The position numbers and the translations under genes are program-made. From an archaeon (GTDB taxonomy: Archaea > Nanobdellota > Nanobdellia > Pacearchaeales > GW2011-AR1), in the NCBI GenBank assembly GCA_043821585.1, contig JBDRCQ010000015.1, forward strand, positions 135,341-199,340: a DNA stretch of 64,000 bases. Reading direction: 5' to 3'. A model generated the notes under the pieces. That model was not told the origin of the DNA, searched no databases, and saw only the letters and a program-made list of their open reading frames with translations. Positions 8,524-10,399 of the stretch are shown one piece after another. Positions within the stretch are counted from its first letter, which is position 1, and each line of letters opens with the position of its first letter.

Positions 8524-9297
8524 ATGGGTATACGATTTGGTCCTGCTGGGTTGGGTCCGGCGGACTCTGCTGAAGATGTCCTCGAGGAATTGCATAAAAA
8601 GGGGTTGAAGGCGTGCGAGATTGTGTTTGCCTATTCGGTATACCTTAAACCTGAAGAGGCCTTGCGAATTGGAAATAAAGCTAAAGAGTTGGATATTGAG
8701 TTATCGATCCATGGTTCTTTTTTTGTTAATTTGAATGCTGATGATAAGGCAAAGTTGGGAGCTTCGAAAAAGAGGATTTTGGAGGCGTGTAAGATTGGCG
8801 AGCTTTTGGGAGCTAAATGTGTTGTTTTTCACCCGGGTTTTTATGGGAAAGATCGTGAAGGGGCTTATGATAATATTAAGAAAGCGATGTTGGAGTTAAT
8901 GGAGATTCGTAAGAATAATGGGTGGAAGATTGAGTTGGCTCCTGAAACTATGGGGAAAATTAATGTTTTTGGTTCGGTTGAGGAGATTTCTAAGCTTGTT
9001 AAGGAAACAGGTTGCGGGTTTTGTATTGATTTTGCGCATGTTTTAGCTAGAGAGAAGAAGATTGATTATGAAAAAATAAAGAAGGCTTTTCCTCGGGAGG
9101 ATTGGCATTGTCATTTTTCTGGGATTATTTATGGGGATAAGGGGGAAAGGAAACATAAATTGACTGAGAAGGGCGAGTGGAAGGAACTGTTGGGGGCGAT
9201 TGGTGGGTTGGATAAGAAAATTAGGATTGTGAATGAGTCGCCTTCGCCGATGGAGGATGCTGTTGATGGCATGAAGTTGTGGAAGAAGATTAGATAA
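8524..9297 (+). CDS. nfo: endonuclease IV-like AP endonuclease (TIM barrel, family 2)
   Basis: SIHGSFFVNL, VVFHPGFYG, ELAPETMGK, CIDFAHV and HCHFSGI match the metal-ligand blocks of endonuclease IV. Confidence 0.8.
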   Translation: MGIRFGPAGLGPADSAEDVLEELHKKGLKACEIVFAYSVYLKPEEALRIGNKAKELDIELSIHGSFFVNLNADDKAKLGASKKRILEACKIGELLGAKCVVFHPGFYGKDREGAYDNIKKAMLELMEIRKNNGWKIELAPETMGKINVFGSVEEISKLVKETGCGFCIDFAHVLAREKKIDYEKIKKAFPREDWHCHFSGIIYGDKGERKHKLTEKGEWKELLGAIGGLDKKIRIVNESPSPMEDAVDGMKLWKKIR

Positions 9298-10399
9298 TCT
9301 CTCTTGCCGCCCAGTCTTCGTCGTAATCTGCGCGTGTTGTTTCGTGCTGCTCTAATCGATATACTTTTTCTCCCTCTTCTGGGCCGATATCTGGTTCTGG
9401 TTTGTCAATAAATCCGTCTAATTTTCTTGCTCTTACGGGATGTTGCATATCTCTCACCGCTTTTGCTTCAACCTGCCTTATTCTTTCTCTAGTGGTTCTA
9501 AATATTTTTGCAACCTCCTCAAGCGTGTACGTTCCGTCAGTTCCAAGGCCATATCTCAGTTTGATAACCTCTCTTGCACGATAGGTCAGTGTTTGGAGAA
9601 CCTGGTCAATCCTTTCTTTAAGCAAGCTTTTATCTATTTTTTCTGTCGGGTCATCTGAGATGTATGGCTGTTCTTCTTCTGGGAGTAAGTCAAATGAGTC
9701 AGGGTTTGCGAGACTTTCCAATTGCTCTTTTCTTGCACTTCTTGCTCTGGGTGGACCATACTTTTGAGAGTCTTCCACCGCCCTTTTTAACCATCCATTG
9801 CCAGCCTCTTCTCTTCGTTCGTAGGAGATTTCTTTTACTATCTCTTTTAATCCTTCGGGAAAAAGAGATCCTACGTCTGATCCAAGTGCTTCTGCGATTC
9901 TTTCTGCGACTTCTGGCGGGGGCATGGATCTTGCCTTTTCATGTGCATGTATTGTTTCTTTTGTAATCCCAACCCTCTCTGCTAATTGTTTTAAGGTTAG
10001 GGAAGAATTTATGCGAGCGGATCTTAGATCGAAATTATAATAGGAGTCTAGCGCGCTTTCTTGTTTTCTCGTTCTTAGATTTGTTAGTTTTATCCCTTCT
10101 CTTTCTTTTTCATCTGGGATGAGCCCCTCATAACGATCCTTCTCTGGCCCATATTGATTTCCTGCGAGCCCATAAAGAACGCCTCCTGTTGCTAAATCTT
10201 CTCTTTGATCGCAGTGTATTGAAAGCCCCAGCTCCTCTGCTATCTCTCTCGCAGACATGCCATCGCGATACATTTGCTCAATTTCTGGATGCTGTTCCCG
10301 GAATAGTCTCCCAAGTCTTCTTTGAGCATTCATTGCCTTGAATTGCTGCGGTGTCAATACTGGTTTCTTCTTTGGTTCATCTTTTCCCTTCTTTCCCAT
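9290..10399 (-). CDS. multi-HTH DNA-binding protein: XRE-type HTH plus a C-terminal sigma-70 region 4-like module
   Basis: C-terminus [57 protein letters not shown] matches the RpoD region 4.1-4.2 consensus. Mid-region [40 protein letters not shown] is an XRE HTH. N-terminal [13 protein letters not shown] is a third HTH-like segment. No sigma region 2 was seen. Confidence 0.75.
   Translation of the reverse strand: [369 protein letters not shown]

Follow-up and report, generated by a model that had tools for sequence, protein, structure and literature searches.

How does an archaeon come to carry part of a bacterial sigma factor, and does that part still serve in transcription initiation? We asked this of a gene in a 64,000-nucleotide (nt) stretch of a Pacearchaeales genome (lineage GW2011-AR1; GenBank assembly GCA_043821585.1, contig JBDRCQ010000015.1, positions 135,341 to 199,340), which we call the window and number from its first letter. 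The gene joins a helix-turn-helix (HTH) domain of the XRE type to region 4 (r4) of a bacterial sigma-70 factor, and we refer to it as the XRE-sigma4 gene. Archaeal RNA polymerase (RNAP) initiates with TBP, TFB and TFE. Genes classified as sigma-70 (fam00359) have been reported in DPANN genomes, especially those of Woesearchaeota; their mis-binning was excluded, no anti-sigma factors were found and the mechanism was called unclear (Castelle et al., 2021; PMC8204110). Our literature search found no paper that resolves the architecture of the DPANN sigma-70 genes. Here we describe the architecture, origin, relatives and surroundings of the window gene, and argue that its product is probably a DNA-binding transcription regulator and not a sigma factor.

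Architecture of the XRE-sigma4 protein

The open reading frame (ORF) list places a protein of 369 amino acids (aa), with an ATG start, exactly at 9290-10399 on the minus strand. The 3' end of the gene overlaps a convergent AP (apurinic/apyrimidinic) endonuclease gene by 8 nt. The gene and its parts, with the evidence for each, including AlphaFold2 (AF2) models and their predicted local distance difference test scores (pLDDT), are as follows:

9290-10399, minus strand: XRE-sigma4 gene, with N-terminal module, XRE HTH and sigma region 4 (ORF list, Pfam, full-length orthologues P0122 and P0124)
10070-10399, minus strand: N-terminal module, aa 1-110, with a helical core at aa 17-79 and a local HTH-like motif at aa 39-60; fold unclassified (AF2, phrog_664)
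9872-10027, minus strand: XRE/Cro-type HTH, aa 125-176 (HTH_3 E=4.5e-13, 49.5 bits; AF2 pLDDT 96-98)
9656-9871, minus strand: family-specific linker, aa 177-248 (family consensus, AF2)
9395-9655, minus strand: sigma module, aa 249-335, comprising the end of region 3.2 and regions 4.1/4.2 to the native sigma C-terminus (Sigma70_r4, RpoD models, alignments to SigA chains in PDB)
9293-9394, minus strand: acidic C-terminal tail, aa 336-369 (34 aa), a low-confidence helix (AF2 pLDDT 50-61)

The preliminary description of this gene as a sigma-70 region-4 module fused to an XRE HTH was borne out by Pfam. Sigma70_r4 matches aa 267-319 (E=1.9e-19, 69.3 bits against a cutoff of 24.1), HTH_3 clearly passes its cutoff of 23 bits, HTH_31 matches as well (45.9 bits), and the domain has the five helices of the XRE class. 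The NCBIfam models for RpoD, RpoS and MzaA match through their last ~85 positions only, at aa 249-335. Alignments to solved SigA/RpoD chains begin late in region 3.2, of which only the last ~15 residues are alignable, and end at the native C-terminus (...GFID). The region-4 match lies far above what chance would give. The match had been given as a C-terminal segment of 60 aa; its assignment to region 4.1/4.2 of bacterial group-1 sigma factors stands, but the peptide quoted is 52 aa long (aa 276-327, at nt 9419-9574).

The source annotation (product P0121, 9290-9778) contains the last 162 aa only, from an internal GTG start at V208. With its XRE and N-terminal domains cut away in this call, the gene resembles one for a lone region-4 protein. 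We favor the 369-aa reading because HTH_3 lies in the same frame and orthologues carry all three modules in one gene.

The AF2 model of the whole protein has a pLDDT of 81. When it was compared with Foldseek, region 4 alone superposed on sigma structures (sigmaA-r4 chimera 7kug_D, root mean square deviation (rmsd) 2.8 A over 79 columns), while whole sigma factors gave an rmsd of ~26 A and a template modelling (TM) score of ~0.22. The linker holds the motif 'LFPE.L..I..E...ER', long helices at aa 184-214 and 217-231 and then an acidic connector; aa 177-248 have no Pfam match and are unrelated to sigma regions 2 or 3. The acidic tail (aa 336-369) is not conserved among orthologues.

The N-terminal module, which is common to P0122 and P0124, is helical when modelled alone with 20 homologues (AF2 pLDDT 89, predicted TM score 0.78), and it matches phrog_664 'DNA binding protein' at aa 19-61 (E=1.4e-10). 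Its HTH-like segment at aa 39-60 is a real local match, yet falls under every Pfam cutoff when scanned alone; GerE, for example, reaches 16.7 bits against a cutoff of 23.5, at aa 42-60 and thus outside the r4 module. We rejected the module as a recognizable HTH fold, as even the best Foldseek matches were not significant (E 3.7 in PDB, E 2.2 in BFVD). The three-HTH protein proposed in the preliminary description therefore keeps its XRE and r4 domains, while a third HTH is weakly supported. The same module ('HPEIA.LYR.G....I.EEL.I') also heads unrelated proteins of 230-360 aa with repeated 'G(I/V)HG(R/M)(T/S).E(E/Q)' units and no Pfam family (P0151, P0159, P0184, P0195, P0201, P0249). These appear to form an undescribed repeat-protein family.

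Absence of the other sigma regions

Whether the protein could be a sigma factor depends on what accompanies region 4. Sigma70_r1_1, r1_2, r2 and r3 gave no Pfam match at E<=10, either in the whole protein or in four sub-segments. A full-length Planctomycetota RpoD profile compared with all six frames of the window matched the XRE-sigma4 ORF only, through columns 468-572, and found no region 2 or 3 anywhere in the 64 kb. The sigma finger that links regions 2 and 4 was not found in the XRE-sigma4 protein.

We also considered a cryptic region 2 or 3. A profile of the whole family, aligned to RpoD with hhalign, ran colinearly into regions 2.4/3.1, and tblastn matches in plasmids began as early as aa ~184. 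A family profile lacking r4 reached only 1.7% probability, its sole alignment to RpoD being that of one generic HTH to another, and the extension was therefore judged an alignment artefact. The earlier observation that region 2 is missing thus agrees with Pfam, the RpoD profile, the profile-profile comparison and the fold search, and region 3 is absent too. By its domain content the XRE-sigma4 protein is not a sigma factor. Because the core-binding region is absent, XRE-sigma4 fusions cannot be sigma factors, and the paradox of DPANN sigma factors without a sigma-dependent polymerase is removed.

Archaeal origin, age and selection

The contig is archaeal and not chimeric, a point that the preliminary description had left for checking. 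The small and large subunits of replication factor C (RFC) are encoded at 3350-6032, 3-6 kb from the XRE-sigma4 gene, and a class I aminoacyl-tRNA synthetase at 50399-53215 has 81% identity to "Nanoarchaeota archaeon" and 77% identity to "Candidatus Pacearchaeota archaeon" metagenome-assembled genomes. Archaeal markers therefore flank the gene on both sides, and archaeal information-processing genes are present in the window and in related contigs. In GC content (0.41), third-position GC content (GC3, 0.33) and synonymous codon preference, the r4 segment cannot be told apart from the remainder of the gene or from 16 further ORFs of the window. Orthologues also occur in independent assemblies, described below. 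On this evidence the r4 module is native to the host, and both contamination and an artificial junction with bacterial DNA are, for practical purposes, excluded.

P0001, the bacterial gene that matches best, is a true rpoD: it encodes regions 1.1 to 4 and is flanked by dnaG upstream and EF-G downstream. Over a 74-aa r4 core, the window protein and P0001 share 77% identity in protein, 62% in DNA and 25.7% at third codon positions. Of the 57 conserved residues, 13 have the same codon, and the two genes share no stretch of identical nucleotides longer than 11 nt. High protein identity combined with saturated third positions indicates that the transfer is old and that the protein sequence has been held by selection. 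The sigma module was thus evidently acquired long ago and kept under purifying selection.

The module resembles Planctomycetota RpoD, with 62-77% identity. Among the best 120 of 4,937 full-length matches, all named proteins are Planctomycetota RpoD, matching through the C-terminal quarter at 53-71% identity, and the family consensus shares the diagnostic positions of these proteins (LRYG, YTL, RERVRQ, KLQ, P.RA). Planctomycetota references were the closest for 57 of 81 r4 segments (77 from the family and four phage-like), within a reference set biased towards that phylum. Several members score 0.69-0.79 against Planctomycetota RpoD but at most 0.66 against any other member of the family, a pattern that independent divergence from one RpoD-like ancestor would give. 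The window r4 carries 9-10 unique changes compared with 22-28 in its positional orthologues (p=0.0035, 0.0041 and 0.02). A crude neighbor-joining tree, which is indicative only given its biased references, nests it within the clade of Planctomycetota references in 21 of 25 bootstraps. These results may reflect either slow evolution or an old secondary replacement.

A family of XRE-sigma4 proteins in DPANN

Relatives were sought with a query free of r4, the N-terminal aa 1-248, in an exhaustive HMMER search that returned 488 cluster representatives at E<=1e-3, of which 50 reached E<=1e-10. A C-terminal r4, detected with the window r4, occurs in 48 of the 73 shorter representatives, and an r4 hidden Markov model was positive in 90 of 132 proteins, metagenome loci included. 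Pfam confirmed both HTH_3 and Sigma70_r4 in P0122, P0124, P0143, P0133 and P0126. Family members share the signature D.Y.NY.LR.AR...GYT...LA...G.S...I..YERLR..P....A.KIA..LGK...ELFPE.L....EI..ER, which a variable linker connects to r4. The window protein has HEKAR at the place of YERLR and otherwise aligns throughout. A degenerate DNA pattern drawn from the signature was used to scan metagenomes and recovered 58 loci, about 40 of which encode family members.

Other searches were uninformative. A word-indexed search with the N-terminal 250 aa returned only the window's own truncated product, one with the alignment of XRE domain and linker returned no match, and one with the full-length protein was swamped by bacterial RpoD. 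Peptide-pattern scans of genome, metagenome and viral contigs with the full protein found no relative.

The same architecture is thus spread through DPANN chromosomes, as seen both with HMMER and in metagenome loci. What the preliminary description took for a captured module is a genuine piece of a bacterial sigma factor, but not an isolated capture. The XRE-sigma4 gene belongs instead to a large family native to DPANN chromosomes, with relatives on phage-like contigs.

Short XRE-sigma4 genes (~200 aa) are located elsewhere than the window gene, still amid archaeal hallmark genes:

L045: aIF5B, aIF2gamma, S6e
L021: SBDS, Rrp4, proteasome subunit
L015: TYW1, Trm5/TYW2
L072: L15e, NreA
L073: aIF5B, diphthamide synthesis
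L074: Cas4, presenilin-type signal peptide peptidase

In two unrelated assemblies the short gene lies directly downstream of aIF5B (IF-2) (L045, 17-2385; L073, 6147-8606).

A divergent branch of the family is found on phage-like contigs: L043, which is the same as IMG/VR L071 (3982-4576), L052 (3398-3989), L066 (3358-4189) and L014 (1167-1767). L043 carries a DnaD-like loader and a virion/endolysin protein, L066 an HNH endonuclease, and L014 has 62% GC. In annotated phage and plasmid collections we found matches to r4 alone and not the fused architecture. A phage-like XRE-sigma4 protein in a bacterial host could contact RNAP through its sigma4 module. The fused gene may have moved from phages or bacteria to DPANN archaea or in reverse.

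Recognition-helix residues

The residues of E. coli sigma70 that read the -35 element, which we take to be R584, E585, R586, R588 and Q589, all have equivalents in the window protein. Across the family, E585, R586, R588 and Q589 are each retained in 52-58 of 77 members and R584 in 30 of 77. Retention of these recognition-helix residues makes a DNA-reading role plausible.

Conserved gene neighborhood and control region

The window gene occupies a conserved neighborhood, in the order SMC, a FixG_C-like gene of ~420 aa on the opposite strand, DUF7557, XRE-sigma4 and the convergent AP endonuclease gene, with RFC, aEF-1alpha and primase close by. The same neighborhood holds P0122 (L009), P0143 (L010 and L011) and P0124 (L012), of which L009, L010 and L012 are independent assemblies. 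In the window and in these three, DUF7557 lies ahead of XRE-sigma4 and the pair lies between the FixG_C-like and AP endonuclease genes. At ~38% protein identity, the L009, L010 and L012 genes are positional orthologues of the window gene. The small genes and non-coding elements of this region are:

10744-10959, minus strand: DUF7557 gene, 71 aa, ATG start (PF24434 E=2.5e-11; RHH_1 17 bits)
10475-10684, minus strand: low-complexity ORF of 69 aa between the DUF7557 and XRE-sigma4 genes, its reality uncertain
10982-10989, minus strand: TATA-like TTTATAAA, centered ~26 nt upstream of the DUF7557 ATG (10957-10959)
10965-10980, minus strand: GTATAC-N4-GTATAC, following TTTATAAA and ending 5 nt before the DUF7557 ATG; the two together (10965-10989) form the putative core promoter and operator of the DUF7557 unit
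11018-11025, minus strand: conserved element TAGTTACA, upstream of the DUF7557 TATA box
10421-10447, minus strand: putative own promoter of the sigma4 gene, with TAGTTACA (10440-10447) and then TATA-like TTTATATA (10421-10428)
11042-11067, no strand assigned: invariant TATAAACTTT..GGT block (TATAAACTTT..GGT.A..ACA) of the four-locus alignment
8517-8533, no strand assigned: exact GTATAC-N5-GTATAC over the start codon of the convergent AP endonuclease gene (xylose isomerase-like TIM barrel); 0.04 expected

The preliminary description placed the XRE-sigma4 gene downstream of a ribbon-helix-helix (RHH) gene and a 69-aa ORF. A small RHH-like gene is indeed upstream, and its start is better placed at the ATG (71 aa) than as an 85-aa ORF with a TTG start. 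DUF7557 is in the same position in L009 (as an unannotated ORF), L010, L011 and L012, and most short XRE-sigma4 family members are without it. We do not count it as a proven RHH protein, as a PDB sequence search gave no match and RHH_1 just 17 bits. The 69-aa ORF exists as well, with no match in Pfam or PADLOC, but L009, L010 and L012 lack it, their DUF7557 and sigma4 genes abutting or overlapping; the ORF is genome-specific and outside the conserved unit. In the window, where it is inserted, the sigma4 gene also has a TAGTTACA and TATA promoter of its own.

The ~130-nt control region of the DUF7557-linked subfamily is strikingly conserved, although the proteins are only 38% identical. GTATAC-N4-GTATAC is invariant in the four-locus alignment. 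Only three GTATAC repeats occur in the 64 kb, all within 2.5 kb of the XRE-sigma4 gene, where 0.03-0.04 would be expected by chance. The spacing of the DUF7557 TATA box, repeat and ATG fits a leaderless archaeal promoter in which a repressor site lies between TATA and start. Because family loci without DUF7557 lack the repeat, our tentative assignment is to the small RHH-like protein. The repeat was rejected as an operator of the whole family, since it is confined to the DUF7557-linked subfamily and the copy at 8517-8533 is found in the window only, being absent from the same place in L009 and L010. That copy may reflect lineage-specific co-regulation or coincidence.

The 64 kb hold exactly two copies of TAGTTACA, each on the coding strand and upstream of a TATA-like box; TTTATATA, the box of the sigma4 gene, is centered ~25 nt upstream of its ATG. 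The corresponding region has two copies of TAGTTACA in L009, one in L012 and none in L010, and the L010 XRE-sigma4 protein is without the N-terminal module. The TATAAACTTT block lies ~48 nt upstream of the divergent FixG_C-like gene (C-terminal transmembrane segment; starts at 11111, plus strand) and, from its deduced position relative to 11111, is probably the TATA box or promoter of that gene. This suggests that a putative surface protein shares its control region with the regulator unit.

Several other features of these loci were noted. In L010 the SMC gene (2201-6625, 1474-aa product) is interrupted by an intein that contains a LAGLIDADG endonuclease, and the window SMC gene (14337-17240, 967 aa) has no intein. 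A HicA/HicB toxin-antitoxin pair (10609-11015) is inserted beside the L010 AP endonuclease gene and is absent in the window. In L070 a DUF7557-like small protein (798-1032) adjoins a PemK/MazF-like gene (452-791), both identified by eye; this pairing hints that DUF7557 proteins can act elsewhere as antitoxin-type RHH regulators. Across the window (1-64000), 30 of 32 bins of 2 kb have a positive GC skew, (G-C)/(G+C), with values up to 0.3-0.4. Cumulative skew climbs monotonically though genes lie on both strands, an unusually strong strand asymmetry.

Proposed function and alternatives

From what was observed, namely the domain architecture, the place in a family, the archaeal origin, age, selection, synteny and the conserved elements outside genes, we infer DNA binding, an assignment of proteins to elements and a regulatory outcome. 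We consider it probable that the XRE-sigma4 protein is a multi-domain DNA-binding transcription regulator of Pacearchaeota/'Nanoarchaeota'-type DPANN, not a sigma factor, and that it autoregulates its DUF7557 unit. The gene would be the distal member of a conserved unit with the small DUF7557 (RHH-like) gene, and both proteins would bind conserved elements around the TATA boxes of leaderless promoters. GTATAC-N4-GTATAC, in the repressor position between TATA and start, would most likely serve the small RHH-like protein, and TAGTTACA is a candidate site of the XRE-sigma4 protein or of its N-terminal module. The unit, and possibly the divergent surface-protein gene too, would be autoregulated through the normal archaeal TBP/TFB/RNAP machinery.

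Several observations weigh against this proposal. TTGACA, the -35-like candidate for the sigma4 target, was rejected, as neither it (8 occurrences observed against 4.4 expected) nor any other 6-mer is significantly enriched in the upstream regions of family genes. Conservation of the r4 module reaches far past the DNA-reading helix, into region 4.1 and the C-terminal stretch; this exceeds the need of a generic HTH and hints at an additional or different constraint. The use of region 4 as an ordinary DNA-binding domain, as first suggested, is plausible from the recognition residues, but conservation beyond their helix would also allow a role in docking proteins. The GTATAC repeat tracks DUF7557 rather than XRE-sigma4 and may be unrelated to the XRE-sigma4 protein, DUF7557 resembles RHH proteins weakly (RHH_1 17 bits, no PDB sequence match), and leaderless transcription is read solely from TATA-to-ATG spacing.

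The conservation of r4 could mean that sigma4 is mainly a protein-docking surface, for the DUF7557 protein, another regulator or a flap-like RNAP element, with DNA specificity coming from the XRE HTH, by analogy with bacterial sigma4, which is bound by anti-sigmas and activators. Although synonymous sites are saturated, the module keeps 77% identity to RpoD over its full length, with region 4.1 and the C-terminal tail included; the window r4 evolves significantly slower than its orthologues, and the lack of TTGACA enrichment and the conserved small partner gene also fit. However, the -35-reading residues of the recognition helix are the best-kept polar positions across the family, and DUF7557 is missing beside most short members, so that we regard docking as unlikely to be the main role. 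If the module has kept polymerase or partner docking, it would bear on the exchange of initiation-factor modules between bacterial and archaeal transcription. A sigma-like factor for promoter specificity or recruitment, acting on archaeal RNAP or on the RNAP of a bacterial host or neighbor, would explain a complete sigma4 module conserved near the bacterial level, the abundance of the family in DPANN with hybrid bacterial and archaeal gene sets (PMC8204110), and related genes on phage-like contigs where bacterial RNAP would be available. Yet core-binding region 2, region 3 and the sigma finger are all absent and there is no secretion signal. We also know of no sigma4 docking site on archaeal RNAP, and find this explanation very improbable. 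We think it scarcely more credible that XRE-sigma4 proteins are adaptors that keep a sigma-like job by docking on the archaeal machinery or by acting on the RNAP of bacteria met by DPANN cells or their viruses. A retained sigma-like job is compatible with near-bacterial conservation of the module despite saturated synonymous sites and with the phage-borne relatives; if true, it would make these proteins a third kind of initiation-level specificity factor in archaea and not ordinary repressors.

The gene could also regulate a mobile element, a toxin-antitoxin (TA) system or a defense module instead of being a chromosomal housekeeping regulator. TA and phage control modules typically hold pairs of small XRE and RHH proteins, divergent relatives lie on phage-like contigs (L043 = IMG/VR L071, L066), HicAB stands beside the unit in L010, and PADLOC gives domain-level matches to MzaA, RmrA and capH. 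But the chromosomal position is the same in four assemblies at only ~38% protein identity, and no toxin, integrase or defense protein was found among the neighbors. A TA module was rejected for want of a toxin-family match in DUF7557, the 69-aa ORF, the AP endonuclease or the FixG_C-like protein, and MzaA because the match reaches 99.6 bits against a cutoff of 800 over profile positions 634-720 of 726, with no defense match in the neighbors; overall we judge such a role improbable. An artefact, that is, a bacterial sigma factor on a misbinned contig or a chimera joining the 3' end of rpoD to an archaeal gene, might be suspected from the high similarity of the last ~85 aa to Planctomycetota RpoD and from a source annotation that holds the 162-aa r4-containing part alone. 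Against it stand the host-like composition and codon usage of r4, the random third-codon identity to the best bacterial gene (26%), archaeal markers on both sides with the same fusion at the same locus in independent assemblies, and the absence of regions 2 and 3 anywhere in the window, so that its probability is negligible.

The main residual oddity is a complete sigma4 module that is strongly conserved in an archaeon, where no sigma-dependent polymerase is known. The family is a clear case in which one module of an essential bacterial protein crossed domains, was fused to a new partner, became a family and was strongly selected. It also supplies testable parts (domains, a partner gene, two conserved DNA elements and predicted leaderless promoters), and so opens to direct study gene regulation in organisms that are not yet culturable alone.

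Comparison with known systems

The closest known sequence is region 4 of RpoD/SigA: homology covers the C-terminal 87 aa, starting late in region 3.2 and reaching the end of the sigma protein, and the -35-reading residues are present. The XRE-sigma4 protein differs from RpoD/SigA in lacking regions 1.1, 1.2, 2 and 3 and the sigma finger, and in having an XRE HTH, a novel N-terminal module, an acidic tail and an archaeal host, in which a bacterial RNAP core would not be expected. The fam00359 genes are likewise sigma-70-annotated and prevalent in Woesearchaeota- and Pacearchaeota-type DPANN, and are very probably the same gene set. They were treated as sigma factors whose control is unclear (PMC8204110), whereas the genes described here are fusions of an XRE HTH with region 4 only, with subfamilies, synteny and candidate operators.

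MzaA and phage sigma factors (phrog_351) are the best NCBIfam/PADLOC names by E-value and share the r4 module. The match is limited to the last ~80 positions of profiles of ~700-900 positions, and MZA partner genes are absent nearby. In Tfx, Bat/HTH_10 and LuxR-type archaeal regulators, tetra-helical HTHs of the sigma4 class serve as ordinary DNA-binding domains (PMC5413776). These are distant members of the HTH clan, whereas the XRE-sigma4 domain is an unmistakable copy, of recent type, of primary-sigma region 4 (69 bits); GerE and HTH_10 both score below cutoff, which places the protein outside the LuxR/GerE class.

Like XRE/Cro-C1 regulators, the protein has a canonical HTH_3, is encoded by a small regulator gene beside a small gene of DNA-binding type, and is probably autoregulated. 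It differs from them in carrying a C-terminal sigma region 4 instead of the usual oligomerization or sensor domains, and is set apart by the family-specific signature 'D.Y.NY.LR.AR ... YERLR..P ... LFPE'. Domain-shuffled HTH regulators and bacterial genes in DPANN were both known before; what is new is a defined architecture that combines an XRE HTH with sigma region 4 only.

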